A stretch of DNA of 64,000 nt from positions 16,556 through 80,555 of the forward strand of contig JAPLLN010000049.1 of NCBI GenBank assembly GCA_026387475.1. The letters run 5' to 3'. The notes under the pieces were generated by a model. The model was not told the DNA's origin, did not search any database, and saw nothing but the letters and a program-made list of their open reading frames with translations. Positions 35,392 to 54,375 of the stretch are shown piece by piece. Position numbers and translations under genes: made by a program. This stretch comes from Candidatus Omnitrophota bacterium (lineage in GTDB: Bacteria; Omnitrophota; Gorgyraeia; Gygaellales; Profunditerraquicolaceae). Within the stretch, counting starts at the first letter, position 1. Each line of letters begins with the position of its first letter.

Positions 35392-38265
35392 CGTAAATGA
35401 CTGATTGTCAATAACTGTATACACTTTCCCCGAACTAGGGTTAGTTAATGTTAGGACTGATCCGGGTTCTTTAGGCAAAATAGTATTCACGCTGCCAACA
35501 GGAAGGTCGCCCTGGTAAACAACCGCCCTGCCATCTTTATAATCTAAGGTAACTTTCAGTGGCCCATGTTTAACTATGCCGTATTTGGGGTCGTTTTCGG
35601 TTGTAGTAAGATCATAATTCCCTGGTGCGATTTCAGCAGCTGCGTTATTCAGAGTGACTATTACAGGTTTACTAGCATCCGGTATAGACTGGGTTGGCTC
35701 AAAGAAGGAACTAGGAGCACTTGGCGGTATGGTGACGGCAATAGGGATCTGATTTGATTTTCCAGCGTCGTAGCCGGGTATCGGTACCGTAGTTAGGGTT
35801 TCAGAAGGCTGCATCACTTGCGGAGTCCTCGCTAAATCAGTTAGCGGCGGCGCGAGCGAGTCTCTGCTGGCAAACTCGGGAGTAACCGGTAAAGGCATCG
35901 GCTTTATGGGCAGCGTTCCCCAATTAAACGCCTCCGCATCAGCATCATTCCTCTCTAAGGCGTTGGACCTAACATAAACATCAGTTCTTCCGGTAACCGA
36001 ATTATAGATAGGAAAACGAGTCTCCGGGCCATTATAGTCGCGAGGCACCAATTCATATAATACTTTATCGGTTCCTTCCTTGTAAATGGGCTGTCCGGAG
36101 ACCCAAGAACCGCCTTCGGGAGCCAGATTTGGATCATAGACGACAGTAGCGACTGCCGGCTGATTCGGCGATACGGCTGAAGGGCTTACACGATTCTGCT
36201 CGAAGAAATTAACAGGTCCCGGAGATTTAAAGTCCTTCCATTTTGCCTCAAATTCTGCTACGGTCGGTTTTGTCGCTGGGTCAAACGGATCTCTTATCTT
36301 TGCCGGGGGTTCGTTTGGATGCTGAATCTGATATGCAGAATCTTTCAACCATTGACCAACATTCTCTGCGGCTTTTGTAACAGGAGAGACTGCACCCCTT
36401 TCTCCCCAAGAATCCTGCGCTTGTTTTGTCAGGTTCTCTAAATACTGTTCTTTTTTAACATCCTGCTCAGCTCTCATAGAAACGGGGAGCGGCGCTAATG
36501 TCTTTCCTTCTCCTTCGGGGCTTACTATCGGCGCCTCTGCGAAGGAGCTCGGATTACGCAAGGGAACATAAAGCTGCTTTGGTTTTGCTGAGTAGTCAGC
36601 AGGTACCGGCACCGTGGTTAGACCTTGCGAAGGCGGTTCTACCGTAGACGGCCGAGAGCCGGTGAGACCGGCTTCGAAAGAATCAACTGTTTCAGGTATG
36701 CTTACAGGAGCCGGATTGAATAGGCTTTGTGAAATTACCGGTAAAACCGGTAGCCCTGCATCAACTTCTGATGGCGGAGAAATATTCGGTTTAAACTCCA
36801 ATGGCCGTATTAAACCAACAGGCGCTTTCACCTGATAAAGCTTCTCATCTGGTAGACCACTACCCGGAGGGCCTGCAGTATTTATTTTATCAATAAAATC
36901 AGACGCGGATGCTTGAGGAGTCCCGCCCGGAAGGCCTAAAACTGCTCCAGTATTATTAATCTGCTCCTGCAAACCGGAAGAAATGCTCGGCTTATAGCCT
37001 CCTTCTTCCAGATTGAAACCCACAGGATACTCTGGTTTATTAGAAAGATAGGCTTCGGATAGTGCCGGATATGGCTGCGAAACTGCCGGAAGCGGCTGGC
37101 TTACCTGCTGCGCAGTTGATTGGGGTAGAGAATAACCGGACCATGTCCTAGCGTCTTCCGGAGAAGCGCCATTTCTTATCGCAGATTCGTATTGCCATTG
37201 CGGAGTATTCCACGCCGGCGCCTGTGAAGTAGCAGCTTCCTGCGCCTGCGGAAGAATCATAGGAAGAGGCGGATTAATATTATACGTCTTGACGGAAATT
37301 GGAAGAAGACTCTTTCCCTCCCAATCCGACGGAAGCTGTTCCATAGGATATTCGGGATACGAAACAGTCAACCCAGAAGGGGTTGTGGTCCGAATCGTAG
37401 CATTAGTATCACCTTTACCGGTAACTACCGGAGCTTCTATTTCCGGGGTTTCTCCTGTGCGCAAACCCAACCAATTACGGCCGGCGCCATCAAGCTTAGT
37501 CTGCTTAACTCCTGATGACATAGTTTCATAGCTGGTATTCAAGTCTAATTTATGAGCAGCTAAACTCCCCAGCGAACCAGTTACATTATACGCTCCGCTA
37601 AATGCCTGATTAATCACATACCTGTCCATCATACCTTTACCTTCGGTCATCTCGCTTGCCGCGATACTTAACAGATGGGAAGGAATACCTTGCACCAAAT
37701 CGCCTAAGGCGGCTTTTGAAACAGATCCACCGGCAAAATCTCCGGCCATACCTGCGGCAAGGCCGACCCACGGGCTATACTCACCCTTACTATTCGAAGC
37801 AGCATATATAATTCCGCTCTTGACTATACTCTCCGGTATGGCTCCGGGACTACCGCTGATCAACCCCGAACCCAAACCCGTTCCTAATGAACTTATCCCG
37901 GAGATAGCCTGGCCGCCCCAGCCGTAATAATTACCCATCGCCGATATTCCATAACTCAACTGGCCGGTGGCAAGATTAGAGGCATAACTATTCCCCCACG
38001 AACCAAGGGCGCTCATCGCGCTGAAATTGCTAAGATTCCCGCCGCTTGAAATCGCGCTTGAAGCCGCGCTCCCGGCAACAGAAGAAGCCACACCTATGGC
38101 TGTCCCCACGGCAAAAGTCCCTGCGTCAAAACTATCTGTCTTGCCGCCGCCGGCGGTAGAACGGGAGGCAAACGCCTTTGCGGGTAAAGAAAAGGATAAA
38201 GCGAATGCGCAGGCTAAACATACCGCGCTAATTTTTAATATCCTCATCCTTTTCATTTTAATCAC
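35368..38265 (-). CDS. Large secreted protein (965 aa). Signal peptide, then a Gly/Ser/Ala-rich N-terminal region, then Pro-rich segments.
   Basis: The ORF track gives a 965-aa ORF. It starts GTG(M)IKMKRMRILKISAVCLACAFALSFSLPAKAFA, a classic signal peptide. A long low-complexity G/S/A region follows (SSVAGSAASSAISSGGNLSN...). It is co-oriented with the Tad operon upstream. Confidence 0.75.
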   Translation of the reverse strand: MIKMKRMRILKISAVCLACAFALSFSLPAKAFASRSTAGGGKTDSFDAGTFAVGTAIGVASSVAGSAASSAISSGGNLSNFSAMSALGSWGNSYASNLATGQLSYGISAMGNYYGWGGQAISGISSLGTGLGSGLISGSPGAIPESIVKSGIIYAASNSKGEYSPWVGLAAGMAGDFAGGSVSKAALGDLVQGIPSHLLSIAASEMTEGKGMMDRYVINQAFSGAYNVTGSLGSLAAHKLDLNTSYETMSSGVKQTKLDGAGRNWLGLRTGETPEIEAPVVTGKGDTNATIRTTTPSGLTVSYPEYPMEQLPSDWEGKSLLPISVKTYNINPPLPMILPQAQEAATSQAPAWNTPQWQYESAIRNGASPEDARTWSGYSLPQSTAQQVSQPLPAVSQPYPALSEAYLSNKPEYPVGFNLEEGGYKPSISSGLQEQINNTGAVLGLPGGTPQASASDFIDKINTAGPPGSGLPDEKLYQVKAPVGLIRPLEFKPNISPPSEVDAGLPVLPVISQSLFNPAPVSIPETVDSFEAGLTGSRPSTVEPPSQGLTTVPVPADYSAKPKQLYVPLRNPSSFAEAPIVSPEGEGKTLAPLPVSMRAEQDVKKEQYLENLTKQAQDSWGERGAVSPVTKAAENVGQWLKDSAYQIQHPNEPPAKIRDPFDPATKPTVAEFEAKWKDFKSPGPVNFFEQNRVSPSAVSPNQPAVATVVYDPNLAPEGGSWVSGQPIYKEGTDKVLYELVPRDYNGPETRFPIYNSVTGRTDVYVRSNALERNDADAEAFNWGTLPIKPMPLPVTPEFASRDSLAPPLTDLARTPQVMQPSETLTTVPIPGYDAGKSNQIPIAVTIPPSAPSSFFEPTQSIPDASKPVIVTLNNAAAEIAPGNYDLTTTENDPKYGIVKHGPLKVTLDYKDGRAVVYQGDLPVGSVNTILPKEPGSVLTLTNPSSGKVYTVIDNQSFTNVQSGQN

Positions 38266-38456
38266 TACCTTTCGTTGGTAATCTGCGTTACCCCGGGCTC
38301 ATACTGCTCGCCCTGGCCGAATGTATCCGCGGTCTCGCGCGCGCGCTCGTGGAATGCCCGCTGCAAAAATATGCGCATCCCGATAAAAGCGCCCAGCACG
38401 ATCAAAACCAATGCCACATATTCAATCAACCCCTGCGCCCTAATGTTTGGCTTCAT
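38265..38456 (-). CDS. flp: Flp/Fap-family pilin-like protein (class III signal peptide).
   Basis: 63 aa: MKPNIRAQGLIEYVALVLIVLGAFIG.... It has the G-x(2-4)-EY motif followed by a hydrophobic helix, and shares the motif with the other small ORFs in this locus. Confidence 0.55.
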   Translation of the reverse strand: MKPNIRAQGLIEYVALVLIVLGAFIGMRIFLQRAFHERARETADTFGQGEQYEPGVTQITNER

Positions 38457-39237
38457 AATCCACCGCTATGTTAGTGACGCTCTTGCCTAAATCCGGCAAT
38501 TCTTTCTCAAAAGTAACCTGGGATAACCCGATTTTACAGGTATCATTACGGTTATTAGAAAATACCAGCTCTTTCACTGCCGCGCGGGTATTCTTTACGC
38601 CTGCCATCGGCACTTGCGCAAGGGGGCTTTCGCTCTCCAACTTCCACCCCCGGAGGACCATATTATTCTTATAAAACAAAACAACTTCAGCTAATCCGTC
38701 CTTGCAGTAATAATTCACCGATTGCCCGCCGGGCCCTTCTATGAGATTTATCAATACCGCTGCCGGATAAACCGGAGCAATATCTTTTTTAGGCTTAGCC
38801 AGGAGGCGGGTTTCGCCTGCCGCCCCGGGCTCTTCTTTTATTTTACCGCGGGAGACCGTAAACCTGGTCTTGCCGTCTTGGAAATATTGCGCCGGAGGAA
38901 ATACGATGATAATACGCTCCTCTCCGTTATCAAACGCCAGCATATTATCTATAACAGCGGCATTAGCCGGCGGAACATTCTTACCTAAATTAATTTCTCT
39001 CCAATTAGAAGCAACGAGTTGTTTGCGGTAGAAATTTTTTACCGCATCCCCGCTTTCATTAGTTACGTAATAGGTAAAATGCTGCTTTGAGCCGGCGATC
39101 AACCTGTCCTCTTCTATTGTCTTCCGGGCCCCGTATGGCACCGGGGTAGAGGCCTGCCCCCACCAATCAGCATAAAGCCAGCTAACCTGAAAAAGGGTTA
39201 TAATAATCAATGCTAATAAAGTACGCTTACCTGACAT
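38440..39237 (-). CDS. Secreted hypothetical protein (265 aa) within the Tad locus.
   Basis: ORF track. N-terminal signal-like segment MSGKRTLLALIIITLFQVSWLYA. It is co-oriented and tightly packed between the tadG-like and flp genes. Confidence 0.55.
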   Translation of the reverse strand: MSGKRTLLALIIITLFQVSWLYADWWGQASTPVPYGARKTIEEDRLIAGSKQHFTYYVTNESGDAVKNFYRKQLVASNWREINLGKNVPPANAAVIDNMLAFDNGEERIIIVFPPAQYFQDGKTRFTVSRGKIKEEPGAAGETRLLAKPKKDIAPVYPAAVLINLIEGPGGQSVNYYCKDGLAEVVLFYKNNMVLRGWKLESESPLAQVPMAGVKNTRAAVKELVFSNNRNDTCKIGLSQVTFEKELPDLGKSVTNIAVDYEAKH

Positions 39238-39246
39238 TTTATCTCC

Positions 39247-40650
39247 TTACTTACCCGTCGTGCTAAGCTTATCCGTATCGATAATATCCGAGTCAAATTC
39301 CATTCTCGGCGGGTATATTTGACCGCCCTGCTGGCCAATATTTCCCTGAAAACTTACCAAGCTGTAACTATAAATATCCGGATACGCGGTCTGCCAGAGG
39401 CCCAAGTCCGTTCCCTCGTGATGTTGATGGGTGTGAACCGTAACAAAGCGTTCATTATCCCAGGGCTTTACGTCGTTAATCCAACAGATAATATCCAGCG
39501 CGTCTCCTTCGCTATCTTTTGTCGAACGCTCCGGCATTAATCCGGCTTCAGCCGCAACAAGCAGGGCGATCATGGCGGGGATTAAAGCGATCGCTGCCAG
39601 CACCGCTGCATTACCTACCCCTGCCGACGCCTGGCCTGCTGCAGATAAGTTGCACGCAGCTACATAACCATCTGGAAATGGTTTGCCACATTGAATCACG
39701 GCAAGAGCGAAAAACTTAGCAGCAGTCCTATATGCCTCACCAGCTGCAATCATATCTGCCTTAGCGCTCAAACCCAGGCCTAAAATAGAGGCTAAATCCG
39801 CTAACTCCACGGCTAACGGAAATACGCAAACCTGTAAATCAAAGGTATCCGGTTTTTCAATCGTCGAGTTTATCTTCACAAAATGGCCCCTGTCTTGTCC
39901 GTCTTTCCACGGATAAATATATTCATCCGGAGGGGTGTCTTCTTTAGCCAGATTAGAGATAGAAGTCAAAAACTCACTGAAGCTCCCCTGATAATCACGT
40001 TTTTTATCCGGATCAGTTACATCTTCGGGCGGGTCTCCGCTCCTTAATTTGTTCCCTATCCCGCTGTTGGCAAAAGCAAAGGTATAAGAATAACCCTTGG
40101 CATAATTGTGTTGTTTTTTCGCAGTCTCGCGTATCTTCAAATAGGTGAAATACTGGCCTGTCCAGAAACCCAGAACAGCGAGATTTAAAGCTATGATGAT
40201 CTTAGTAAAGCTTGCTAACTCTGCAGCGGATGCGACTGCTGCTAAGTTAGCCACACCAGATTTTGCTAAACCAATAGGAGCAGCGCAACAGGCTGCTCCT
40301 GTCGCTATTATGCCGGCTGCCGTGGCTTGATTTGCATAGGTTTGCGCAAATGCTAATTTTATCAGTGCCGTAGCAAAAGATACGCTAAAAGAAGCGTAAA
40401 ACATCCAGTATTTTGCTTCTAACGTGCTATTACTCTGGGCAATGCCGTTAAATAAGCTCGCCATAGTCGAGCCTCCGGCGAGCGCTCCGGAGTCTGCGGC
40501 GTTAGCCCCGTAAGTCTTGGTCATCGCCACCTTACTTAAATTCACCGAGACCATCGCCATAATAATGAGCACAACCAACACGATGATAAATATCGGGACC
40601 ATCTGGCCCTGTTCATACCTGAATTTATTTTTGGAAAAATTTGTAAACAT
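39247..40650 (-). CDS. tadG: TadG-like pilus assembly / minor pilin-like protein (467 aa).
   Basis: N-terminal segment EQGQMVPIFIIVLVVLIIMAMVSVNLSKVA resembles the TadE/G-like N-terminal helix. Its position after the tadE-like genes matches canonical Tad locus order. Confidence 0.45.
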   Translation of the reverse strand: MFTNFSKNKFRYEQGQMVPIFIIVLVVLIIMAMVSVNLSKVAMTKTYGANAADSGALAGGSTMASLFNGIAQSNSTLEAKYWMFYASFSVSFATALIKLAFAQTYANQATAAGIIATGAACCAAPIGLAKSGVANLAAVASAAELASFTKIIIALNLAVLGFWTGQYFTYLKIRETAKKQHNYAKGYSYTFAFANSGIGNKLRSGDPPEDVTDPDKKRDYQGSFSEFLTSISNLAKEDTPPDEYIYPWKDGQDRGHFVKINSTIEKPDTFDLQVCVFPLAVELADLASILGLGLSAKADMIAAGEAYRTAAKFFALAVIQCGKPFPDGYVAACNLSAAGQASAGVGNAAVLAAIALIPAMIALLVAAEAGLMPERSTKDSEGDALDIICWINDVKPWDNERFVTVHTHQHHEGTDLGLWQTAYPDIYSYSLVSFQGNIGQQGGQIYPPRMEFDSDIIDTDKLSTTGK

Positions 40651-40662: not shown

Positions 40663-40911
40663 TTACTTCACTATAACCTTATTCTCAGTAAGCGCCTCCG
40701 GGACATAATTCCAACTCACGGGCTGAATGTAGTCGTCTTTACCTGTCCCGGCAGTAACGCGCGTATTATTGTAAGCGACCTGGCGTTTGATCATCTGATT
40801 ATTAAACCAGAACCAGATATTCACCATCCCGCCGAGGACAATGACCAGGATGATAAACGCCATCACTGTCTCAATGGTCCCCTGTCCTTTATTATTGCGC
40901 GCGCTCCTCAT
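40663..40911 (-). CDS. TadE/TadF-like pseudopilin (82 aa).
   Basis: MRSARNNKGQGTIETVMAFIILVIVLGGMV... has the G-x4-E class III signal-like motif plus a TM helix. Confidence 0.5.
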   Translation of the reverse strand: MRSARNNKGQGTIETVMAFIILVIVLGGMVNIWFWFNNQMIKRQVAYNNTRVTAGTGKDDYIQPVSWNYVPEALTENKVIVK

Positions 40912-40912: not shown

Positions 40913-41572
40913 TTAATGCCCGGGTGTATACCACGTCCGGCCCCTTTCTACTTCTGTGCCTGTCGCAGCCTCGCTATACCGGTACTGGTGCGTATTCGGA
41001 TCGTAATAAACTCCCTGCGTAACTGTCCAGAGAGGCTTATTATCTTTATCTACTAGAGTGGTGGTGATAGTATCTTTTAAAGTCGAGGAGCGGATATTGG
41101 TAATGCCCGCCGCATCCTCCTGCTTACGCGTGCTCTCTTTAAATTGCGTATCTTGAGAAGTCGTTACGTTCTGCACGCTCCCGATATCTTTAAGATTAGG
41201 GGAATAATTATCGTTTACTTTGTAATAATTAGCGCTCTCTCCGGCGCTCCCTACTTCGGGGACCGACCATAGGACGCTGGCGTTGGCATTAGTGGTCTGG
41301 GAACTTCCTTTTCTGAAATACCCGGAGATATCCGCGTCTCTCCTATTCTCTAAAAGCGAGAGCTGTACCGAGCCTCCGCCTGCCGAAGGCGTATTGATCC
41401 CGCCGTAGTTAGCTATCTGCAGCGCTTCGCGGAAGGTGCGCATCTGCACATACTGCAGGTCATTGGCGCGGCTTAAATAAGAGAGGAGGATGCCGAAGAT
41501 GACCAGTATAAGGCTGCCGAATATTGCCAGCTCTAACAATGCCTGCCCTCTTATGTTCCTACCACGTATCAT
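40913..41572 (-). CDS. tadE: TadE-like pseudopilin (219 aa).
   Basis: MIRGRNIRGQALLELAIFGSLILVIFGILLSYLSRAN matches the TadE-like N-terminal pattern (G-x4-E followed by a hydrophobic helix). Confidence 0.5.
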   Translation of the reverse strand: MIRGRNIRGQALLELAIFGSLILVIFGILLSYLSRANDLQYVQMRTFREALQIANYGGINTPSAGGGSVQLSLLENRRDADISGYFRKGSSQTTNANASVLWSVPEVGSAGESANYYKVNDNYSPNLKDIGSVQNVTTSQDTQFKESTRKQEDAAGITNIRSSTLKDTITTTLVDKDNKPLWTVTQGVYYDPNTHQYRYSEAATGTEVERGRTWYTPGH

Positions 41573-41581: not shown

Positions 41582-41992
41582 CTACTGCTGCTGTTCGGTA
41601 TTGCTGGACGTATTCGAACTCTGATAAACAACGCCGGAATCCGATAAAGCTGCCGAGACCCCGGTAGTATCGATAATCCTGCGCGTATCCACCACATTGG
41701 AACTTGAACTGGATTGCGCGACTTCATTTAAACTGATAGCTCTGGCTCCTCCCAACATATCTATAGAGGTCATATTCGAAGCAGAATTAGAAGTGCTGTT
41801 GCTTGAGACTATGGCATTGACATAATAATCCGCAGCCTGCATCTGGTTCCCGCCGCCGATAAAATTATCCGCCATATCCTTGACCTGCCCCTGAAAAGAG
41901 CGCTTGATATAGGTGCTCATCGCAAACAAAACAATAGCGATGATCCCGAAAATAATGCTGTATTCCAGAACTGAAGCGGCTCTTTTATTCAT
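41582..41992 (-). CDS. flp: Flp-like pilin with a Ser/Thr-rich C-terminal extension (136 aa).
   Basis: MNKRAASVLEYSIIFGIIAIVLFA..., with an S/T/N-rich tail. Confidence 0.5.
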   Translation of the reverse strand: MNKRAASVLEYSIIFGIIAIVLFAMSTYIKRSFQGQVKDMADNFIGGGNQMQAADYYVNAIVSSNSTSNSASNMTSIDMLGGARAISLNEVAQSSSSSNVVDTRRIIDTTGVSAALSDSGVVYQSSNTSSNTEQQQ

Positions 41993-41994: not shown

Positions 41995-42324
41995 CTACCT
42001 CAAAGGTTCCTGATCCACGCTTAAAACATTCTCAACGCGGTTAGTCTGCTGCAGCGTGTTGGCGCTGGACTCATAAATGCTCCGGTTCGTGCCGTTTATC
42101 TCCTGCTCGTAACTTGACCCTTTTTCATTCACCTCGCGGTTTATGGTGATATCCGAGATAGTCGCGCCCGGAGAATAACTAACCGCCCCGATCTGCTCGG
42201 CGCTTGTCTTGATCTTTCCCTGTATCCCGCCCTTTAAGTATATCTGCATACCGACGAGCGCGGCGACCAGAATACAGATAAAGACCGCGTACTCCACCAG
42301 GCTTTGGGCGCTATTTCTCATCAC
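41995..42324 (-). CDS. flp: Flp-like pilin (109 aa).
   Basis: MMRNSAQSLVEYAVFICILVAALVGMQIYLKGG.... Confidence 0.55.
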   Translation of the reverse strand: MMRNSAQSLVEYAVFICILVAALVGMQIYLKGGIQGKIKTSAEQIGAVSYSPGATISDITINREVNEKGSSYEQEINGTNRSIYESSANTLQQTNRVENVLSVDQEPLR

Positions 42325-42487: not shown

Positions 42488-42503
42488 CGCGGCCCCTTTC
42501 ATT

Positions 42504-45154: not shown

Positions 45155-45200
45155 ATTTCACCCCCCTTGATTTGTTTTAAAAAACTAATTTCCGCCGAGA

Positions 45201-45897: not shown

Positions 45898-47679
45898 ATG
45901 GGTATTGTACATAAACTGATCCCCCAAATAAAAGACTTCATTTTAGAGCAGAAAAAGGCTGACCCAAAGATCAGCTGCCGCAGCCTCTCTGACCTTATTG
46001 ATGAGAAATTCCAGATCCAAGTCTCTAAATCCAGCATTAACGCTATATTCAAGGGATCCGGGCTTAGCATGCCTGTAGGGAGGAGTTCAGAAGGAAAACG
46101 CAAGCTGCGTATCGAAGCCCCTGCTCTGTTGCTTTCCGCGCCTGCGCCTGAACCCGAGCCGGCTCCTGAACCGGTCATTGAAAAGCCTGTTGAGCCCGCG
46201 CCTGAACCAATAATTGCAAAACCTATCGAACCTATGCCTGAACCGGTCATCGAAAAACCTGCTGCTCCGGCGCCTGAACCCGAACCGGCTCCTGAACCGG
46301 TCATTGAAAAACCTGCTGCTCCGGCGCCTAAACCAATAATCCAAAAGACTTTTAAGGAGTTTGAAAAAGTAGAATTTACCGAAACGCCGAGCAGCGGAAT
46401 CATACTCTTAAAAGCGGCGGATTATCTTATCAACGGAAATTACGACGCAGCCGAGATCATCAAAAAAAGGCTTAACCGCTCCGGCGGCAATCTCCCCGCC
46501 CAAACCGAGGCTTTTACCTTTTCCCAATTACCGAATTCCCTGCCGGCAAACCTTGAGCCCATAACCGGCATAAGGATGAGTCCCGAAGACCTGGATAATT
46601 ATGCTCAAGAGATAAATTCCGTTAAGACCTTGACGCTTGATATTTCCCGCGTAATAGCCAACTGCCTTGAAGAGGTGCGCTGCATAAAAGTTATACTCTC
46701 CGACGGAAACTCCTTCTACCTGGATGCCCAGATGCACTCCATCTGGTCCACCCCGCACATCCCTTACGATTTTTCTTCGACTGCGTCCGATATCAAACGC
46801 AGCGTTAACGATTACTTCTTCGCCGGAGAGCCCATCTCTTTATTTATGGCACCGGGCTATGATACACCCTCTAAAGACCTTTTTAATTTTATCGCCGGAA
46901 TGGAAGGGGTAAATAAAAAAATAACCCGCCTTACCGTCTGCGGGAACAGGTTCGAGGATATGGATACTGTCGCGATAGACGCACCCAAGAAGTATTATTA
47001 TATCTTCGGCGCCTGGCCGTGGCAGTTTGTAGGCGCGCGTAAGGTCAAGAAGATCGGCGAGTTTAAACCTTACCGTTCGCAGGTCTTAAAAAAAGACGCG
47101 CTTTGCGCCGAGCTTGATATAGATTTCATCAACCCCGAAACCAAAGAAGCGATCAACTTAAAGGGGTGCGCTTTAAAAATGAGCCCTGCGGAAAAGACCA
47201 GGCTGATCATTTTAAGCAACCTTACCGGCGAAAAAGCCCTACCCGCGGCTTTATGCGAGGCATATTTATCCCGCTGGCCGAATTTAGAAGAAGCCTTTCA
47301 GGATTACAGCCGCAAGATCGAACTCTTTACTTATACGGCGGAGGCCCGAGCCTTTTTCAGCCCGGAACATTTCAACTTGGAAGGCATCCCTACCCTAAAA
47401 GATGCCAAGACCGTAGCCGCGAATTATCTATTTACCCTGGATTCATTCCTTAAATGGCACCTTTTGCCGCAAGGGTATGAAAAACAAGATTTCACGGTAA
47501 CTGGGGCTCGTTTTTACGATTTAAAAGTGAACCTTAAAAAGGAAGGGAACTGTGTGGCGGTAAATTTCCAAATTCCTCAAGGATACGCATACCTTAACGA
47601 CCTGCAATACCTCTGCCGCCGCCTCAACGAAAGATTTATCCGCTTGAGCGACGGCCAGCGCCTCTGGTTCAATTCTTAG
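45898..47679 (+). CDS. DDE-type transposase-like protein (593 aa) with an N-terminal HTH-like region and a Pro/Glu-rich repeat linker.
   Basis: N-terminal segment KISCRSLSDLIDEKFQIQVSKSSINAIFK is HTH-like. The linker repeats APEPVIEKP(A/V) about 5 times. The C-terminal half has VILSDGNSF (D), MAPGYDTPSKDLFNFIAGMEG (D) and AYLSRWPNLEEAF (Y-x2-R-W-x3-E-x2-F, an IS4/IS1634-like third catalytic motif). No terminal inverted repeats were recognised flanking it. Confidence 0.5.
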   Translation: MGIVHKLIPQIKDFILEQKKADPKISCRSLSDLIDEKFQIQVSKSSINAIFKGSGLSMPVGRSSEGKRKLRIEAPALLLSAPAPEPEPAPEPVIEKPVEPAPEPIIAKPIEPMPEPVIEKPAAPAPEPEPAPEPVIEKPAAPAPKPIIQKTFKEFEKVEFTETPSSGIILLKAADYLINGNYDAAEIIKKRLNRSGGNLPAQTEAFTFSQLPNSLPANLEPITGIRMSPEDLDNYAQEINSVKTLTLDISRVIANCLEEVRCIKVILSDGNSFYLDAQMHSIWSTPHIPYDFSSTASDIKRSVNDYFFAGEPISLFMAPGYDTPSKDLFNFIAGMEGVNKKITRLTVCGNRFEDMDTVAIDAPKKYYYIFGAWPWQFVGARKVKKIGEFKPYRSQVLKKDALCAELDIDFINPETKEAINLKGCALKMSPAEKTRLIILSNLTGEKALPAALCEAYLSRWPNLEEAFQDYSRKIELFTYTAEARAFFSPEHFNLEGIPTLKDAKTVAANYLFTLDSFLKWHLLPQGYEKQDFTVTGARFYDLKVNLKKEGNCVAVNFQIPQGYAYLNDLQYLCRRLNERFIRLSDGQRLWFNS

Positions 47680-47736
47680 GGACACCCTTCAATCCAAAGC
47701 AGGGACACCCTATATGCCAAAGCTGAGGGTGTCCCC
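47678..47736. repeat. REP-like palindromic elements: AGGGACACCCT x2 direct plus an inverted AGGGTGTCCC, forming a hairpin at 47701–47735.
   Basis: 47678–47688 and 47701–47711 are direct copies. 47726–47735 is the inverted copy. This is the same 10–11-mer as the hairpins at 48294–48328 and 48684–48718. Confidence 0.6.
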
Positions 47737-47783: not shown

Positions 47784-48284
47784 TTGGAAGGAGATGATTC
47801 TATGCCTAGGGGAGCGAGAATACTTTTAAGGAACGTGCTGTACCATATTATAAACCGCGGTAATCAAAAAGAACGGATATTCCTGGAAGGATCAGACTAC
47901 CAGGAATATTTACGAATATTAAAACACTATAAATGCAAATTTCGATTCAAGGTTTTCGGATATTGTCTAATGCCAAACCATGTCCACATAATGCTGGAGC
48001 TAAAGAATCCCCAAGACTTGGCAAAGATAATGCAATGCTTGACCCAAACTTATACCAAATGGTTCAACAAGAAATATGAAAAAGTCGGACACTTATGGCA
48101 GGGTAGGTTTAAAAACATGGTGATACAAAAAGATGATTACTTGATAAATTGTATATCTTATGTGGAAGCGAACCCTGTGAGGGCTGGCATAGTTAGGTTT
48201 CCAGCAGATTATTGCTGGAGCAGCTATAAAGACAGGGTATTTGGGAATAAAAATGCCTTGCTGGATTTACCCGATTCAACTTAA
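47784..48284 (+). CDS. IS200/IS605-like HuH tyrosine transposase (REP-associated tyrosine transposase-like, 166 aa).
   Basis: YHIINRGNQKERIF...GYCLMPNHVHIMLE (HuH motif H-V-H)...ISYVEANPVRAGIV (catalytic Tyr region)...YCWSSY. It is flanked on both sides by GGGACACCCT/AGGGTGTCCC hairpins, the REP-transposon-like arrangement. Confidence 0.7.
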   Translation: MEGDDSMPRGARILLRNVLYHIINRGNQKERIFLEGSDYQEYLRILKHYKCKFRFKVFGYCLMPNHVHIMLELKNPQDLAKIMQCLTQTYTKWFNKKYEKVGHLWQGRFKNMVIQKDDYLINCISYVEANPVRAGIVRFPADYCWSSYKDRVFGNKNALLDLPDST

Positions 48285-48293: not shown

Positions 48294-48328
48294 GGGGACA
48301 CCCTGCCGATTAGCTCCAAGGGTGTCCC
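48294..48328. repeat. REP hairpin GGGGACACCCTgccgattagctccaAGGGTGTCCC. It also sits between the convergent 3' ends of the tyrosine-transposase gene and the DUF192-like gene.
   Basis: Perfect 10–11-bp arms at 48294–48304 and 48319–48328. Confidence 0.6.
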
Positions 48329-48669
48329 TAAATAATGGAAAGGAGATCGCCTTTAGAAGTCCGGGCGGATTGGATGGTACCGACGGGAAGCTCAATAACG
48401 CAGGCGGCGCGAAGGAATACCTTGCTTAGCCTTGCGGGCTTTAATGCAGGCACTACGCCTACCACATAATTATTTTTATCCATAAAAAGCAAATCAATAG
48501 GAAATCGCATAAAAAAAGTATGTATCGAGTTGCAGGGCCGCAGAATCAAAGCCTCTCCCGCAGGAAATTCTTTTCTCCCCAAAAGTCCTTTTACCCTTGC
48601 CAAAATATTATCTGCCATAACCGCCTTATTTGCTAATATGGTATTTTTACTTTCATTGCTTATTTTCAT
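48328..48669 (-). CDS. DUF192-like (COG1430) small protein (113 aa).
   Basis: ...ILRPCNSIHTFFMRFPIDLLFMDKNNYVVGV... resembles the DUF192 core IHTxGMxFPIDxxFLD. It is bracketed by REP hairpins. Confidence 0.5.
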   Translation of the reverse strand: MKISNESKNTILANKAVMADNILARVKGLLGRKEFPAGEALILRPCNSIHTFFMRFPIDLLFMDKNNYVVGVVPALKPARLSKVFLRAACVIELPVGTIQSARTSKGDLLSII

Positions 48670-48683: not shown

Positions 48684-48718
48684 GGGGACACCCTACCGAT
48701 TAGCTCCAAGGGTGTCCC
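48684..48718. repeat. REP hairpin GGGGACACCCTaccgattagctccaAGGGTGTCCC.
   Basis: Near-identical to 48294–48328, with one loop substitution. Confidence 0.6.
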
Positions 48719-48723
48719 TGGTT

Positions 48724-50880
48724 TTACTGGGCGCGGAAGATGTCTTCCGGCAGAGGGATGCCTTTGATCCTGAATTCATTGATAAACGACGGGACATAAC
48801 CGGTAGCCTGGAAATCTCCCAGGACATTATGCTCCTTATCCATCCCGGTCTGCTTAAACATAAAGATATCTCTTAAATCGATGTGCGACTCATCCTTCAT
48901 CCCGCAGACCTCAGTGACCTGCAATATCTTGCGGCTGCCGTCGGAGAGGCGGGCGGTGTGAATGATCATGTGTATGGCGGAGGCGATCATCTCGCGGATG
49001 GCCCTGATAGGAAGTTCTATCCCGGACATAAGTATCATGGAGTCAAAACGGGTCAGGGCGTCCTGTGTAGAGTTGGCGTGCACCGTAGTCATCGAGCCGT
49101 CATGGCCGGTATTCATCGCCTGCAACATATCCAGGGTCTCTACTCCGCGGCATTCGCCGATGATTATCCTGTCGGGGCGCATTCTCAAGGTATTCCGGAA
49201 AAGGTCTCTTATGGTGATGGCGCCCTTGCCTTCGATATTCGGAGGACGGGATTCCAGCCGGATCCAGTGATCCTGATGCAGCTTTAGTTCCGCGGCATCC
49301 TCAATAGTGACGATCCTCTCGTTATTCGAAATAAACGCCGAAAGTATGTTTAAGATCGTCGTCTTACCGCTACCCGTACCGCCGGAGACAATGATATTTT
49401 TTCTACAGGTGACCGCAGCCTGAATAAAATCCGCCATTGCCTTGTTTAAGGTGCGCAGTTCGATCAACTCTTCGGTCTTAAATCTTTCTTTGCGGAATTT
49501 CCTGATAGTCAAAGACGGCCCGGTCAAAGATAGCGGAGGGATAATGGCGTTAACGCGCGATCCGTCGGGCAGGCGCGCGTCAACCATGGGTACCGACTCG
49601 TCAATCCTTCTGCCGATGGGCGCTATAATGCGCTCAATGACTATTTTTACCTGCTCGTTAGAGATAAATTTCTTGCTGGTAGCCTCGATTTTTCCCCGGC
49701 GCTCGATATAAACCTCGTCTTTGTTGTTGACCATGATATCTGTTATCGTCGGGTCAGCGAGCAGGTCTTCCAACGGCCCGAGGCCGAGCGCCTCATCCAG
49801 CATTTCTTTGACTAACTTTTTACGCACATCGGGTGAAGTAATAAAACTCCCCGCCTCCTCCGTGAGAAAATTCGTGACCATGACCTCGGCCTTATCGCGC
49901 AATTCTTTATTCTTTTTGGAATCGCTAAATGCCTTGGAGTCAAGGCGCTTTAAATTTAATTCTTCTATCAAGCGGGCGTGTATTCTGCGTTTAAGCCTTA
50001 TAATCTCGTCCGCCTCTTCGTAAGGATCGGGCCCGATAAGCGCTTCGGTCAACCCCTCCTTCTGCCAAAAATCGCCGCTCTTGGCCAACGTGCCTTCTTT
50101 TAATTTTAAGGCGTCTATCTCGGCGTGTTCGATATAAAGTTTTTTATTCGTGGTCAATTCATGGGCGAATTCCTTGATGGCCAAAGATATCTTTGACCTG
50201 GGGCTATCCAATATCACCGGAATGCTCTGATTGATCGCCTGGCCCGTAATGCGTCCCTCCGACGGGATGCGCGCGACGATATCGACCGGTAAAGAAACGC
50301 GCACCTCATGCCAGCTTATACTGGATAAAGACTCCGCGCGGTTTAAGACCACCCTGACCATAGAGAGCGGGATATGCATAAATTGCAGGGTATCCAGCGC
50401 CCACTTAGTTTGGTAGACCGAGAGCACATCCGGGGTCACCACAAATAAAACCAGGTTCGCCTGATTCAATACGCCGGCGAATGTCTCGGTGAAGATCTTT
50501 CCCGCGTCGATTATGATGTAATCGTAATCTTTATCGTAGAGCGTAAAAACGCTTTTTATCAATTCAGGGTCAAGATGAGGGGATTGTTGCGGGCGCAATA
50601 CAGCGGGAAGAAAACTGATCCCCAGGCCCGGGGCAGTGGAAAGAAAATCTTTCTTGACCACTGATTCGGGATTTCTTTTTATCTGGGCCATCAGGTCCAC
50701 CATGGCCTTCTGGGGCTTTAAATTCAGCATGTGGGCCATGTCGCCCGCGCCAAAGGTATCCAGGTCTATAAGACAGACGCGCTTGCCTTCGTCTTGAGCA
50801 AGGCTCACGGCGAGATTGGCGGCGACCAGGGTTTTACCCACGCCGCCCTTAGTGCTGAATAAGACGATTCTCTGGGACAT
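48724..50880 (-). CDS. cpaF: Fusion ATPase (718 aa): N-terminal ParA/MinD-like (CpaE/TadZ-like) domain plus C-terminal CpaF/TadA secretion ATPase.
   Basis: N-terminal MSQRIVLFSTKGGVGKTLVAANLAVSLAQDEGKRVCLIDLDTFGAGD is a deviant Walker A of ParA/MinD type. C-terminal ...VSGGTGSGKTTILNILSAFI...VTIEDAAELKL...IIIGECRGVETLDMLQAMNTGHDGSMTTVHANS is CpaF/VirB11-like. Confidence 0.8.
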   Translation of the reverse strand: MSQRIVLFSTKGGVGKTLVAANLAVSLAQDEGKRVCLIDLDTFGAGDMAHMLNLKPQKAMVDLMAQIKRNPESVVKKDFLSTAPGLGISFLPAVLRPQQSPHLDPELIKSVFTLYDKDYDYIIIDAGKIFTETFAGVLNQANLVLFVVTPDVLSVYQTKWALDTLQFMHIPLSMVRVVLNRAESLSSISWHEVRVSLPVDIVARIPSEGRITGQAINQSIPVILDSPRSKISLAIKEFAHELTTNKKLYIEHAEIDALKLKEGTLAKSGDFWQKEGLTEALIGPDPYEEADEIIRLKRRIHARLIEELNLKRLDSKAFSDSKKNKELRDKAEVMVTNFLTEEAGSFITSPDVRKKLVKEMLDEALGLGPLEDLLADPTITDIMVNNKDEVYIERRGKIEATSKKFISNEQVKIVIERIIAPIGRRIDESVPMVDARLPDGSRVNAIIPPLSLTGPSLTIRKFRKERFKTEELIELRTLNKAMADFIQAAVTCRKNIIVSGGTGSGKTTILNILSAFISNNERIVTIEDAAELKLHQDHWIRLESRPPNIEGKGAITIRDLFRNTLRMRPDRIIIGECRGVETLDMLQAMNTGHDGSMTTVHANSTQDALTRFDSMILMSGIELPIRAIREMIASAIHMIIHTARLSDGSRKILQVTEVCGMKDESHIDLRDIFMFKQTGMDKEHNVLGDFQATGYVPSFINEFRIKGIPLPEDIFRAQ

Positions 50881-50883: not shown

Positions 50884-52569
50884 TTATTCTAAACGGTAGC
50901 TTACAGGCACCTCTACCCACAGATCTGCCTGCTGTATTGTGGGCGGGAATGGCGGATAGCTGGAAACACTCTTGGCGACATTCACTGAATTATCGTCGAG
51001 GACTTTATACCCCGAAGAAGAACTGACTGATACGTCAAGCAACTGACCTAAATAAGAAAGGTGAAGTTTTAATTTTGCCGTGCCTTCAAAACCCGACTGT
51101 TTTGCCGAAGCCGGATAAATAAGATTATCCAAAATCCTGCGCTGGACAACAGCCGCGTAATTCCTGATATTCTCCGGGATCGCCATGGCGGGCGCGGAGA
51201 CTTCTGCCTGGACCTTGGAATCTGCCACAGGCATAGAGGTAGTTGTTTTCTTTGCCGTCGCCTTGATCGCCTTGACAATAGCCGGAGTAAGGGTTACAAA
51301 CAGCTCCGTATCCCCGCGGTTTCCCGCTCCGCCGCCGGTGGACTTGACGGTCTGCCTGAACATTGCGCCCAAAATAGGTATATCGCTGAAGAACGGGGTT
51401 TTTCTTACCTGGTCTTCTTCTTTCTGTTTGATCAACCCGCCGATCAGCAAAGTCTGCTCGTCATTAAGATAAAGTTCGGTGGTGAAATTACGCTTGGATA
51501 AAGGATAAGCCTTGGCAGTAATGGAAGTGGTGGTCCCGATAGTCTCCGCTTCTCCGACTTCGCTTACCTGGACATAAACCGAGAGCTTGATCCTGTTGTC
51601 TTCAGTCACCGTCGGCTTGACCTTCAGCTTGATGCCGAATTCTTTATATTCTATCTGCACGCCGCTGTTTACCTGTGTAGTAAAAGTTGAGAACGTAGGT
51701 TTTTCTCCGCCGACAAACATCTCCGCTTCTTTCCCGCTCTGGCAAGTCAGCCTCGGCCGGCTTAAAATGCGCGCCTTCCCGTCCCTTACCAAGGCATCCA
51801 GCGACCAGGTAAATGCCGCGCGTCCGTAATTGGATATCTGGAATAATTTATCCAGGTGCGAGCCCGTAAAAGTGCGCGTAAACGATTCGGTAGACCCGGG
51901 ATTAGCCCCGCCTGCGGTAGCGGTCACTGTTGTCGCGCCCACGCCGGGTATCCCGGGAGAGCCGATTTCGGTAACCGTAATATTCCCCGGCCAGCTGAAA
52001 CCCAGAGTGCTCGTCGAATCTTTATTCATCTCCAGGACCTGCACGTCGATCTCTATCGAGGTCTCTTCTTCCTTTATATTGATCAGGTCGACTGTCTTGG
52101 CCTTTAAAGTGCCCAGCGCCGTCGCTATTCTTTCTTTGTCCGCCGCGGTCTTCACAGCACCCAAAAGCATGATCTTATTTTCTTCGTCCGCTGCCCGGGT
52201 ATAAACATTAGGCAAGTCCAGGTCTTTTATTATTGCGTCCACCCGCTCCTTGATCACATCCATATTCTCGATTACGACTTTTACTTTATAAGACTGCTCG
52301 CCGAAACCGTCCCAGATGACCAGGGTAGTCGTCCCTAATGATTTAGGATTGATGGTCACTTCGTTTTTATTCACGTTGGCTACATCCGCGACATTAGGGT
52401 TGCCCACTACGACGCGGTAGGCGTTATTTACCGCCACCACCTTAGGTTCTCCCATATACACCTTAAGCACTTCCGGATTCTCGTCGCCGACTAAGGCGTA
52501 ATTGCATAAAGGCAGGAACGCGTTAAGACAAAACATTACGAAAATTCCGAGCAGTAATTTGTTTTTCAT
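50884..52569 (-). CDS. cpaC: CpaC/RcpA-type secretin (561 aa) with a C-terminal TonB_C-like domain.
   Basis: N-terminal pilus-formation region ...GEPKVVAVNNAYRVVVGNPNVADV.... Secretin core ...ARILSRPRLTCQSGKEAEMFVGGEKP...LLIGGLIKQ...IPILGAMF...TELFVTLTPAIV. The tail YPASAKQSGFEGTAKLKLHLSYLGQLLDVSVSSSSGYKVLDDNSVNVAKSVSSYPPFPP matches the TonB C-terminal pattern YP..A...g.eG.v.v.f.i...G.v..v.v..SSG...LD..a..av....fpP. Confidence 0.75.
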   Translation of the reverse strand: MKNKLLLGIFVMFCLNAFLPLCNYALVGDENPEVLKVYMGEPKVVAVNNAYRVVVGNPNVADVANVNKNEVTINPKSLGTTTLVIWDGFGEQSYKVKVVIENMDVIKERVDAIIKDLDLPNVYTRAADEENKIMLLGAVKTAADKERIATALGTLKAKTVDLINIKEEETSIEIDVQVLEMNKDSTSTLGFSWPGNITVTEIGSPGIPGVGATTVTATAGGANPGSTESFTRTFTGSHLDKLFQISNYGRAAFTWSLDALVRDGKARILSRPRLTCQSGKEAEMFVGGEKPTFSTFTTQVNSGVQIEYKEFGIKLKVKPTVTEDNRIKLSVYVQVSEVGEAETIGTTTSITAKAYPLSKRNFTTELYLNDEQTLLIGGLIKQKEEDQVRKTPFFSDIPILGAMFRQTVKSTGGGAGNRGDTELFVTLTPAIVKAIKATAKKTTTSMPVADSKVQAEVSAPAMAIPENIRNYAAVVQRRILDNLIYPASAKQSGFEGTAKLKLHLSYLGQLLDVSVSSSSGYKVLDDNSVNVAKSVSSYPPFPPTIQQADLWVEVPVSYRLE

Positions 52570-52574
52570 ATTTT

Positions 52575-53471
52575 TTATTTGTATACGGGGACCCTCTCCT
52601 TCTGAAGGCCATGATATACTTCGATGAAACTTATAGGTTTAGGCTCATCCGCTCTTTGCTGCGGAGGCATGACATACTGGAAAAGAGTATCCCATGTCGC
52701 TAATTGCGTGGGCTCGACCTTGGCATCCGTCGGAGAGCGCAGGACCAGGCGTATCTTACCCTGCTCCTGGACAAAAGACAAAAGGCCGGCCTCCTTGGGC
52801 GAAAGCGCCAAAGTTATCAGAGCAGAGGACTCGGTCGCCTGCTGCTTGCCGTATCTGGCAAGCTGTTCCATTGCCGGGGCTGTTCCGCCTGTCTCCTGGC
52901 CTACGGCAAGTATCAAGACATTCTGGAAAAGAGGTATAGAGGTAAGCTGCGTCACGGGCCTGCCTTCGACAACTTGTATCGGGATATTTACCAGCGCGAT
53001 GACATCGACATAGTCTCCGGCTTTGATCATCCCGACGAGTGTTGAGGCGTTATCCGCGACGATCGTTATAGCGCGCTTGCCTACGGGAGTAAGAGAGGCG
53101 AGATCGCCGGAACGCTTAAAAGAAAGTTTGTCCAGCGTTACCTGTTCGCCTTTTGATATAGGAGCGACCGTAAGCATGCCGGATATTCTGTCCACGGACT
53201 TGACCGCCCCGCCTTCTACGCGGTTATTGGGGACTATTTTTGCTTCCAGCCAATCGGGGTCGATCACGACTCCCTGCGCGATATCTTTTTTAGCAATCAG
53301 CACCGGGGTCTGGTTCGCCTGAATAGCTTCCAGTTCCTGTTTGGCGCGCAATCTGGCGGCGCGGTTCTGCTCGTCAAGGTAAACCTTGATCATAAATATC
53401 GCGATCAACGCCAGGCCGATACCGATGATAAGTATTATCTGCTGTTTCTGCAGTTGAATGGGTAGGCGCAT
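52575..53471 (-). CDS. cpaB: Flp pilus assembly protein CpaB/RcpC (298 aa).
   Basis: N-terminal TM anchor, then SAF-like segment ...VLIAKKDIAQGVVIDPDWLEAKIVPNNRVEGGAVKSVDRISGMLTVAPISKGEQVTLDKL. Confidence 0.7.
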   Translation of the reverse strand: MRLPIQLQKQQIILIIGIGLALIAIFMIKVYLDEQNRAARLRAKQELEAIQANQTPVLIAKKDIAQGVVIDPDWLEAKIVPNNRVEGGAVKSVDRISGMLTVAPISKGEQVTLDKLSFKRSGDLASLTPVGKRAITIVADNASTLVGMIKAGDYVDVIALVNIPIQVVEGRPVTQLTSIPLFQNVLILAVGQETGGTAPAMEQLARYGKQQATESSALITLALSPKEAGLLSFVQEQGKIRLVLRSPTDAKVEPTQLATWDTLFQYVMPPQQRADEPKPISFIEVYHGLQKERVPVYK

Positions 53472-53472
53472 A

Positions 53473-54375
53473 TTATTTTATTTTCCCTTCGTAGATCTCG
53501 ATGCGGGCGGAGCTGGAGAGCTTCCCGACGAGGTCATCAAGCTTCTGCTGCTGTTTTAGAAAGGTCAGCCCCTTCTTGATATCTTCCCACATGTCCGTCA
53601 GTGATTTTTGCTGTCCGCCTTTTTTGGCTTCCAGCTTAATGATGCAATAACCGTCGGGAGTCTTAAATACCGAGCTTACGCGGCCTACGTCCAGCGTGTC
53701 CGCGAAAGCCACCGCGTCAAACTGAACACTCTTAGTACCTTTCTTAACGTAGCCGAGGTCTCCGCCGTTCTTGGCGCTTGCGCTCTTAGACTTTTCTTTG
53801 GCCAGGCTGGCGAAATCAGCGCCCTGCAAAAGCTGGATAAGAATATCGCGGGCATCCTGCTCCGACCCGACGACTATCTCTCTGATCTCTCTCTGTTCAG
53901 GGTCTTTCAACTGATCCTTATATTTATTGTAATAGTCTTCGATCTCGGCGGAGCTGACATCCGTAGTCTCGGCGATCTGTTTGACCAAGACCATCAGCAG
54001 AAGTTCCTGGCGGGTCTTCTGCAAAACGCGCGTAACGTCTTCGTTGCGGTCAAGCCCTTTATCCGCCGCGTCCTGCGCCAGAAGCGTGCGCCGGATCAAA
54101 TCGTTTTTAAGATGATTTACTTTCTGTTCCTTGGTGGTGATCTTTAACTCCGGCTTATCCTCCGGGACGCTGGAGTTGTATACGTTGATATCCTGATCCA
54201 GGTCGTCCTGGGTAATGACCTCATTATTTACCTTAGCCACTACCGTGCCTGATTTCACTTCCGAACCAAGCGATATATTGACAGCCGCTTTCTTCCCTTG
54301 GAAGAGGCCGATCTTATCGCAACCGGTCAGCGATACGGCAATGAACAGCGATACTATAAAGATGAATACTCTCAT
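53473..54375 (-). CDS. Parvulin-type peptidyl-prolyl isomerase (PrsA/SurA-like, 300 aa), lipoprotein-like signal.
   Basis: MRVFIFIVSLFIAVSLTGC (lipobox). Parvulin segment ...ASAKNGGDLGYVKKGTKSVQFDAVAFADTLDVGRVSSVFKTPDGYCIIKLEAKK. Confidence 0.65.
   Translation of the reverse strand: MRVFIFIVSLFIAVSLTGCDKIGLFQGKKAAVNISLGSEVKSGTVVAKVNNEVITQDDLDQDINVYNSSVPEDKPELKITTKEQKVNHLKNDLIRRTLLAQDAADKGLDRNEDVTRVLQKTRQELLLMVLVKQIAETTDVSSAEIEDYYNKYKDQLKDPEQREIREIVVGSEQDARDILIQLLQGADFASLAKEKSKSASAKNGGDLGYVKKGTKSVQFDAVAFADTLDVGRVSSVFKTPDGYCIIKLEAKKGGQQKSLTDMWEDIKKGLTFLKQQQKLDDLVGKLSSSARIEIYEGKIK

Follow-up and report, generated by a model that had tools for sequence, protein, structure and literature searches.

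Tad pilus loci such as those of Caulobacter crescentus (Cpa) and Aggregatibacter actinomycetemcomitans (Tad) encode their own prepilin peptidase (CpaA/TadV) together with one to three flp genes, and Tad-type machines are found at the predator contact site both in the Kil apparatus of Myxococcus xanthus and in the Tad pili of Bdellovibrio-like predators. The Omnitrophota are ultra-small, uncultured and probably predatory or parasitic bacteria, in which the Tad locus and the giant proteins encoded next to it are the main candidates for how host cells are gripped and attacked. Tad complexes occur in most Velamenicoccia and are expressed in V. archaeovorus, the Omnitrophota TadB/C grouping with Bdellovibrionales homologues and RcpA with myxobacterial ones (Seymour et al. 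2023, PMC10066038). West-Roberts et al. (2023, bioRxiv 10.1101/2023.11.21.568195) described a conserved secretion/pilus locus upstream of giant genes, which includes rcpC, a Rotamase_2 peptidyl-prolyl isomerase (PPIase) and numerous small genes whose products bear class III signal peptides, and a 2026 preprint again noted pilus and secretion genes flanking giant genes. Here we analysed a window of 64,000 nucleotides (nt) from a Candidatus Omnitrophota genome (GCA_026387475.1, contig JAPLLN010000049.1, positions 16,556-80,555 of the forward strand), for which a Tad/Flp pilus locus had been proposed in a sequence-only reading. We consider it very likely (probability of about 0.85) that the region is a Tad-type (type IVc, Flp) filament machine, conserved immediately upstream of the Omnitrophota giant surface-protein genes. 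Since loci of this type have been outlined in the two 2023 reports above, it is a further instance of an already published locus type, the picture of which is refined and not overturned.

Coordinates count along the window, and the genes of the locus lie mostly on the minus strand, which is meant below wherever (+) is not given. Listing and translating the open reading frames (ORFs) of the 36-57 kb part reproduced the gene order that had been claimed for 38265-54375, with coordinates: PPIase, CpaB, secretin, a CpaE-CpaF fusion and a DUF192 protein are followed by two plus-strand genes, three pilins, TadB, TadC, four pilins, two TadE-like proteins, a TadG-like protein, a secreted protein of 265 amino acids (aa), the last pilin, a 965-aa protein, an 888-aa TPR protein and a giant ORF. 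These genes form two transcription units that run in the same direction, and a near-consensus sigma-70 promoter precedes each of them. Unit 1 (56.9 to 48.3 kb) holds the envelope machine, made up of the PPIase, CpaB, CpaE-CpaF and a secretin with a TonB_C domain, and unit 2 (45.6 to 35.4 kb) holds eight prepilins, TadB/TadC, the two TadE-like and the TadG-like proteins and the 265-aa and 965-aa secreted proteins.

Comparison was made with 80 loci from genome assemblies, nearly all labelled Candidatus Omnitrophota, that carry CpaE-CpaF homologues of 59-96% identity; the closest of them, L003, served as the reference for substitution rates and for insertion calls. When the window proteins were mapped onto these 80 loci, a shared core was recovered which consists of a small membrane protein, PPIase, CpaB, secretin, CpaE-CpaF, DUF192, a homologue of a 593-aa plus-strand protein of the window, the pilin array, two TadE-like proteins, TadG, the 265-aa protein, the last pilin and TadB/TadC. 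The clusters come in two layouts, with tadB-tadC at the end in most species and inside the pilin array in the window, L003, L015 and L065. The gene order had been called canonical, which does not strictly hold, as cpaE and cpaF are fused and tadB-tadC stand within the pilin array only in this sub-lineage.

The assignment of the machine to the Tad type is upheld by Pfam and NCBIfam models, by a match to solved CpaF and by synteny. The 718-aa CpaE-CpaF fusion (48724-50880), which is kept in 80/80 relatives, combines a CpaE/TadZ-like MinD-type part (residues 1-250) with a CpaF/TadA motor ATPase (350-708). Residues 3-250 match CbiA, ParA, AAA_31 and MinD, as befits a TadZ/CpaE protein, and this part is without a receiver-like N-domain. 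The C-terminal half matches T2SSE (PF00437, E 1.3e-64) and the solved Caulobacter CpaF (8rkd, 9e24; E 1.7e-116); its best family is TIGR03819 (TadA) with 337 bits, yet below the 373-bit cut-off, while GspE models reach 55-59 and PilB 48 bits, which places the motor in the TadA/CpaF family of Tad systems. Also as in Tad systems, the platform consists of two single-domain T2SSF proteins, TadB (43549-44412; PF00482 E 5e-19) and TadC (42664-43536; PF00482 E 1.4e-15), and RcpA/CpaC and RcpC/CpaB are both present: the CpaC/RcpA secretin (50884-52569; PF00263 E 1.5e-39) bears an N-terminal T2SS-T3SS_pil_N domain and a fused C-terminal TonB_C domain that is conserved across all relatives, and CpaB/RcpC (52575-53471) is recognised by PF16976 (E 2.7e-20) and by TIGR03177 (143 bits, cut-off 71). 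The PPIase upstream (53473-54375; Rotamase_2 E 7.7e-17) is a SurA/PrsA-like parvulin with a lipoprotein-like signal.

The pilins were located by scanning all six frames of the whole 64 kb with the regular expression [AGS][QASN]x-x-[LIVAMT]-E-[YLTF..] followed by a hydrophobic 20-mer. Exactly ten hits were obtained, all on the minus strand between 38.2 and 45.4 kb, and these are the eight Flp-like and two TadE-like ORFs. All 11 prepilin-like proteins (eight pilins, two TadE-like, one TadG-like) have a short basic leader, the motif [AG]/Q-[ST]-x-x-E-[YL] (the slash marks the predicted cut) and a hydrophobic helix; the leader consensus of the pilins is [KR]-[AG]/Q-[ST]-x-[LIVA]-E-Y, and a [GA]/xxxxEY leader combined with Flp size is present in eight ORFs. 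The proposed number of at least eight Flp-like paralogues is thereby reproduced, and the motif given for them, [AG]-Q-[ST]-x-[LIA]-E-Y, fits six of the eight, the other two reading AQGLIEY and AASVLEY.

Unit 2 opens with the 57-aa Flp-like prepilin pil57 (45185-45358; MFKRKG/QSTLEY), a candidate for the major pilin, which is followed by prepilins of 118 aa (44798-45154), with a YIKRGLQGRIK motif and a tail rich in Ser, Thr, Asn and Gln, and 107 aa (44444-44767). Beyond tadB-tadC come Flp-like prepilins of 52 aa (42504-42662) and 53 aa (pil58, 42326-42487; 58 aa if started at 42502) and prepilins of 108 aa (pil109, 41995-42321) and 136 aa (41582-41992). For pil58 the second ATG at 42487, and for pil109 position 42321, are most likely the true starts because of the position of the Shine-Dalgarno sequence, the orthologues and an independent gene call. 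The claim that three pilins are shorter than 60 aa holds with lengths of 57, 52 and 58/53 aa. The 118-, 107-, 108- and 136-aa proteins belong to a mid-size class (100-136 aa) that shares a Y-I-K-R-G-L-Q-G-R-I-K segment and Ser/Thr/Asn/Gln-rich tails. Next are a 219-aa TadE/TadF-like pseudopilin (40913-41572; G/QALLEL), syntenic and without a Pfam hit, an 82-aa TadE-like pseudopilin (40663-40911; G/QGTIET), the 467-aa TadG-like protein (39247-40650; PF13400 29.8 bits, gathering threshold 22.3), the 265-aa secreted protein (38440-39237), conserved at the same position in relatives, and the 63-aa Flp-like prepilin (38265-38456) that is the conserved last pilin.

With regard to family models, pil57 is the one pilin that exceeds the threshold of the Class_IIIsignal model PF04021 (27.2 against 23.7 bits), and a profile of 34 pil57 orthologues matches the solved Flp pilins 8u2b and 8u1k (E 9e-4). 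Among 111 pilins of the clade PF04021 matches 38 and Flp_Fap 15. The leaders resemble archaeal class III signals with Gln at position +1 more than they do the Pfam Flp model; Gln +1 is essential for EppA processing in Methanococcus (PMC4390842), and the archaeal class III model outscores the Flp model because Gln +1 is a hallmark of archaeal EppA substrates. The pilin assignment is therefore based on the motif scan, PF04021, the match to Flp structures, synteny and substitution rates, and not on Flp_Fap.

The small pilin ORFs, three of which (those under 60 aa) had been missed by the ORF track of the sequence-only reading, are real genes as judged by their ratios of non-synonymous to synonymous substitution rates (dN/dS) of 0.14-0.33 against L003, the machine genes having 0.02-0.08. 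Most of them are preceded by a Shine-Dalgarno sequence, they were also called by an independent gene caller in another assembly of the same species, and the conservation that had been set as a check on them is seen in orthologues that are syntenic across the 80 Omnitrophota loci. Every pilin is matched by an orthologue in the same position even where CpaEF identity to the other species is only 61-73%, whereas the paralogues within the window are only 25-52% identical to each other. From syntenic orthologues, purifying dN/dS and low identity within the genome, we conclude that the pilin genes are old and have each been maintained separately; tandem expansion in particular lineages is seen in the mid-size class only. 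Eight pilins are indeed many in comparison with model Tad systems, as had been remarked, but they are ordinary for the clade, since complete related loci carry 6-13 prepilin-like ORFs. The multiplicity had also been taken as a possible source of antigenic or functional variation, and of these two the functional alternative is favoured: the age of the paralogues argues for a division of labour over recent antigenic variation.

The report of no prepilin peptidase in view was borne out by Pfam, signature and transmembrane screens of the window. Peptidase_A24 gave no Pfam hit on any plausible gene, including 10,000 residues of the giant ORF, a GxGD[VA]K-type signature is absent from all frames of the window, and the only open frames with at least three transmembrane segments are TadB, TadC, TadG and the 690-aa and 888-aa TPR proteins. 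In the relatives, which were screened over 10 kb on each side of cpaEF by signature and multi-transmembrane searches, no A24 peptidase was found in any of the 80, so a dedicated TadV/CpaA, usual for a Tad locus, would systematically lie outside the locus in this clade. In the supplements of the papers, among the entries listed, there is no K02278, and K02654 (pilD) occurs in at least two genomes. Two proteins of unit 1 were considered as hidden enzymes and rejected. The DUF192 protein (48328-48669), which directly follows cpaEF in nearly all relatives and has no signal peptide, finds no support as a peptidase in family models or literature, nor was a link between DUF192 and pili found in the literature. 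The 690-aa polytopic membrane protein (54701-56773), the first gene of unit 1 and present only in some relatives, has about eight transmembrane segments and C-terminal TPR repeats, and was rejected as a peptidase or glycosyltransferase as the TPR part alone matches any family; given the Ser/Thr-rich pilin tails, it could nevertheless be a candidate pilin-modifying enzyme. Between it and the PPIase lies the gene of the 80-aa small membrane protein (54393-54635), conserved in most relatives.

Several points weigh against a Tad-type filament machine. When the proposed Pfam check was made, T2SSF and PF13400 scored above threshold, but TadE remained below its gathering threshold (19.6 against 22.9 bits for the 82-aa ORF), and Flp_Fap did so for 8/8 pilins (best 18.9 against 32.2 bits). 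Prepilin processing is assumed, no peptidase having been found either in the window or, in the relatives, over the 10 kb on each side of cpaEF. In addition, which pilin is the major one and how the machine is linked to the giant proteins are read from gene order, and the locus is known here from its genes alone.

The rival that survives best is a type II-secretion-like pseudopilus piston that exports or deploys the 965-aa and giant proteins, with the pilins acting as pseudopilins. West-Roberts et al. (bioRxiv 10.1101/2023.11.21.568195) call the locus type II secretion-like, it is strictly syntenic and co-oriented with the genes of the secreted 965-aa protein and the giant protein, and its eleven prepilin-like genes recall the multi-pseudopilin sets of type II secretion systems. 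We regard this piston as unlikely, however, on account of the ATPase, which is of the CpaF/TadA type and not GspE (337 bits for TadA against 55-59), of the platform, which is split into two short T2SSF proteins, TadB and TadC, and of the presence of CpaB without GspC/L/M, for which family-model scans of the window genes gave no hits. Furthermore, the leaders are of the Flp/class III type, the small pilins are Flp-sized and match Flp structures, and a secretin is unlikely to let through a protein of more than 10,000 aa.

If the locus is a Tad-type filament machine, as we prefer, an A24 aspartyl prepilin peptidase, with its gene at another place in the genome, would cut after Gly/Ala, leaving Gln1 and Glu5, and a CpaF hexamer acting on TadB/TadC would polymerise a single major pilin, the filament passing through CpaB and the secretin. 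This main subunit would probably be the product of the 57-aa first gene or a member of the Ser/Thr-rich mid-size class, and the remaining paralogues and TadE/G proteins may be minor or priming subunits. The filament would serve for attachment to host or prey cells, and its probable partners would be the products of the neighbouring genes, namely the 965-aa protein, the TPR protein and the giant protein of at least 10,663 aa.

Two plus-strand genes lie between DUF192 and the first pilin, and these had been listed as insertions. This is correct for the Y1 transposase with its REP (repetitive extragenic palindromic) hairpins, which is the only true insertion relative to L003, from which it is absent; the 593-aa ORF is instead a conserved resident. 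The transposase (47784-48284, +; 166 aa) matches PF01797 with E 4.8e-18 and NF047646 with 78.8 bits, the cut-off being 80 bits. REP-like palindromes, GGGACACCC .. GGGTGTCCC, lie at 47678-47736, with more copies at 48294-48329 and, beyond DUF192, at 48684-48719, and a Y1_Tnp gene with such hairpins on both sides is characteristic of REP-associated tyrosine transposases. At least ten other species have a homologue at the same intergenic spot, with 50-68% identity.

The 593-aa ORF (45898-47679, +; GenBank locus tag NT088_02830) encodes a transposase-type helix-turn-helix (HTH), a Pro-rich linker and a C-terminal domain with a Tn5-like fold, and is inverted with respect to the operon in this lineage. 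About 55 loci or species have a full-length homologue in this place, with DUF192 on one side and the first pilin on the other; the gene is single-copy, syntenic and vertically inherited, its divergence tracking that of CpaEF. More than 300 homologues exist, all but one of the source-named ones being from Omnitrophota, and they are annotated only as hypothetical or HTH-domain proteins, bar one repeat-based name. The N-terminal domain matches HTH_33, HTH_32 and HTH_Tnp_Tc3_2, a transposase-type HTH being recognised in 42/64 members. AlphaFold models the protein confidently (pLDDT 82 over its full length and 89 for the C-terminal domain), and the sole significant fold matches in the PDB are Tn5 transposase chains (Foldseek E 2-3e-4, probability 0.94-0.97, about 450 columns), although with a TM-score of only 0.26. 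At the sequence level no match to any DDE Pfam family or PDB chain was found. A YREK-like Y-x2-R-W-x3-E-E-x-F motif is present, but D322, the candidate for the second catalytic Asp, is replaced by Asn or Ala in 8/64 members and a DDE triad is not confidently assigned. Terminal inverted repeats of at least 13 nt flanking the gene were found in none of 48 loci, and together with the fixed syntenic position this distinguishes it from an active insertion sequence of the IS4/Tn5 family. The PEPAPEP-type linker is encoded by imperfect tandem repeats of 54-77 nt at 46138-46340 (+), and its length varies widely between species (homologues of 495-844 aa).

The 593-aa gene runs with the operon in 49/55 loci and against it in 6/55, including the window. 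As the nearest neighbours of inverted loci are uninverted, several independent inversions (at least three to four) have taken place, and these are evolutionary events: a site-specific invertible switch was considered and rejected, there being no flanking inverted repeats in the window or the 48 loci and the same orientation in four assemblies. That the pilin paralogues constitute a variation system, swapped or switched possibly with the help of this transposase-like protein, is quite improbable. The number of mid-size pilins does range from about two to eight between species, with tandem alternating duplicates in, for example, L081 and L027, the pilins evolve three to eight times faster than the machine genes at non-synonymous sites, and a gene of Tn5-like fold that has repeatedly flipped is a fixed neighbour of the array; yet the paralogues share only 25-52% identity within one genome while distant species hold a syntenic orthologue of each, neither silent nor partial pilin cassettes were found, inverted repeats are absent around both the 593-aa gene and the pilin promoter, and the four assemblies with a common orientation are independent ones of the species. 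Decay of the locus into a non-functional remnant, split by mobile elements and deprived of its peptidase, is hardly credible, for although the Y1 transposase/REP elements and the opposite 593-aa gene do separate cpaEF-DUF192 from the pilins and a peptidase is not seen, every ORF is intact and evolves under purifying selection, a strong promoter of its own precedes the pilin unit, the same split is seen in the closest relative and other species with the 593-aa gene as a conserved resident, and the peptidase is absent from the locus clade-wide.

Three regulatory handles can be recognised in addition to the parts list: two strong promoters, a conserved, putatively transposase-derived HTH protein with a 13-mer site, and a c-di-GMP (cyclic di-GMP)-type riboswitch on the giant gene. 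A search for sigma-70 matches over 19 kb gave its three best matches upstream of the 690-aa gene, the first pilin and the 593-aa gene. The promoter-like site P1 (56884-56911; TTGACT-16-TATAAT, extended -10, 11/12 matches) precedes the assembly unit, and P2 (45576-45604; TTGACA-17-TATATT, extended -10) precedes the pilin/tadBC unit, a comparable extended -10 promoter standing ahead of the first pilin in many relatives. P2 is followed by a leader of about 215 nt (45359-45575) in which a hairpin and then a U-run, GGCGGUAGCGCGGUUUUUCUUUUUUU, suggest attenuation. A riboswitch in this leader was considered and rejected, with no Rfam match at E <= 1 and a fold z-score of only -2.2. In the leader of the giant gene (ATG 31990), by comparison, a c-di-GMP-I-GGC riboswitch aptamer is found at 32082-32175 (RF03167, 76.6 bits, gathering threshold 59), 90 nt upstream of the ATG and about 60 nt downstream of a promoter-like site, TTGACA-16-TATACT, identified by eye.

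The 13-mer, AATGTCCAATCTG, has a core, TGTCCAATCT, which occurs seven times in the window: three copies are at the promoter and ribosome-binding site of the 593-aa gene (45818-45888), two at 35358-35389 and two at 32441-32470. The three copies of the first group (motif AATGTCCAATCT; 45816-45891, +) bracket the promoter TTGACA-17-TATACT at 45833-45861, and the last of them abuts the ribosome-binding site; in dozens of species the 13-mer likewise stands on both sides of the -35 box and next to the ribosome-binding site of this gene. The tandem pairs, with copies about 21 nt apart and a hairpin behind each pair, are found where the 965-aa gene stops and immediately beyond the 888-aa gene, so that the 888-aa TPR gene is flanked by a direct repeat of about 40 bp. 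The related loci, 1.32 Mb in all, contain 64 exact copies where about 2.5 would be expected, the majority of the 64 being within 100 bp upstream of the 593-aa homologue, with a modal position of -19 on the coding strand, and the promoter layout (motif, TTGACA, 17 nt, TATAxT, motif, GGAG, ATG) is kept across species. A metagenome scan for tandem 10-mer pairs returned 120 loci, mostly unrelated repeats, of which only four are Omnitrophota tad loci; in L103, L104, L111 and L169 two to three tandem copies lie just after TadC or the gene next to it. From its arrangement the 13-mer is probably an operator of the HTH protein, a role at the RNA level being the alternative. It is possible, and we put it forward tentatively, that the 593-aa protein is a domesticated transposase which has become fixed in the Omnitrophota Tad locus and acts via AATGTCCAATCTG on the pilin unit and the giant-gene neighbourhood, either co-regulating or rearranging them.

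Downstream of the pilins, the 965-aa secreted Gly/Ser- and Pro-rich protein (35368-38265) is the last gene of unit 2, and its motif pair is followed by a terminator-like hairpin. The giant ORF (2-31990) starts at 31990, is open at the window edge and encodes at least 10,663 aa; Pfam recognises in 10,000 of its residues only Peptidase_M24 (about 5978-6115), Peptidase_S8 (about 7563-7704) and LysM (about 8484-8529). At the other end, between 56.9 and 64 kb, the G+C content falls from about 48% to 34-40%, and the genes are unrelated to the locus, encoding a TIGR04255-family protein, an XRE-type HTH protein, a MerR-like protein and several unknowns. L003 and most relatives have a divergently transcribed three-gene set upstream of the locus, where the window has this low-GC island; one of its proteins, beginning MAVKILIVDDDPD, looks like a response regulator by its N-terminus only. 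Its stretch from 60 to 64 kb is met again in 15 other samples, there as separate contigs of about 5.5 kb, a pattern suggestive of a mobile island.

When compared with published Omnitrophota loci, including the LiM locus of V. archaeovorus, the locus has the same secretin, CpaF/GspE-like ATPase, two GspF/TadBC proteins, rcpC, PPIase and small genes, in the same position upstream of a giant gene. What is added here is an exact parts list, together with the findings that the many very short pilin ORFs are genuine, old genes, that the locus never includes the peptidase, and that the leaders look archaeal with Gln at +1. Seymour et al. 2023, West-Roberts et al. 2023 and the 2026 preprint do not mention the CpaE-CpaF fusion, the TonB_C secretin or the clade-wide absence of the peptidase from the locus, nor the old pilin paralogy, the resident HTH/Tn5-like gene with its 13-mer or the two placements of tadBC.

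The 593-aa protein shares with Tn5/IS4-family DDE transposases the fold match, the transposase-type HTH and the YREK-like motif; unlike those elements, its gene has no terminal inverted repeats and is a single-copy, syntenic and vertically inherited gene in about 55 species. With the Caulobacter Cpa and Aggregatibacter Tad systems the locus has in common the CpaF/TadA motor, the CpaE/TadZ MinD-type ATPase, TadB/TadC, CpaB/RcpC and CpaC/RcpA, pilins of Flp size with Glu5-Tyr6, and TadE/F/G-like pseudopilins. It differs from them in having eight pilins and no peptidase, a fused cpaE-cpaF without a receiver-like domain, a TonB_C secretin, Gln +1 in the pilins in place of Ala, Ser or Val, and four pilins with Ser/Thr-rich tails of 50-80 residues. 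The leader, [KR]-[GA]/Q-[ST]-x-x-E, is like that of the archaeal EppA-dependent (Epd) pili (PF04021, formerly DUF361), whereas the other components of the machine (secretin, CpaB, CpaE) are those of a diderm bacterium and the ATPase is much nearer to CpaF (393 bits) than to FlaI or archaeal GspE (about 140 bits). Finally, the locus is like the Kil and Bdellovibrio-like systems in being a Tad-type machine, recognised in the present case by its gene content, and unlike them in its link to giant proteins and its large pilin set, both of which are specific to the Omnitrophota.

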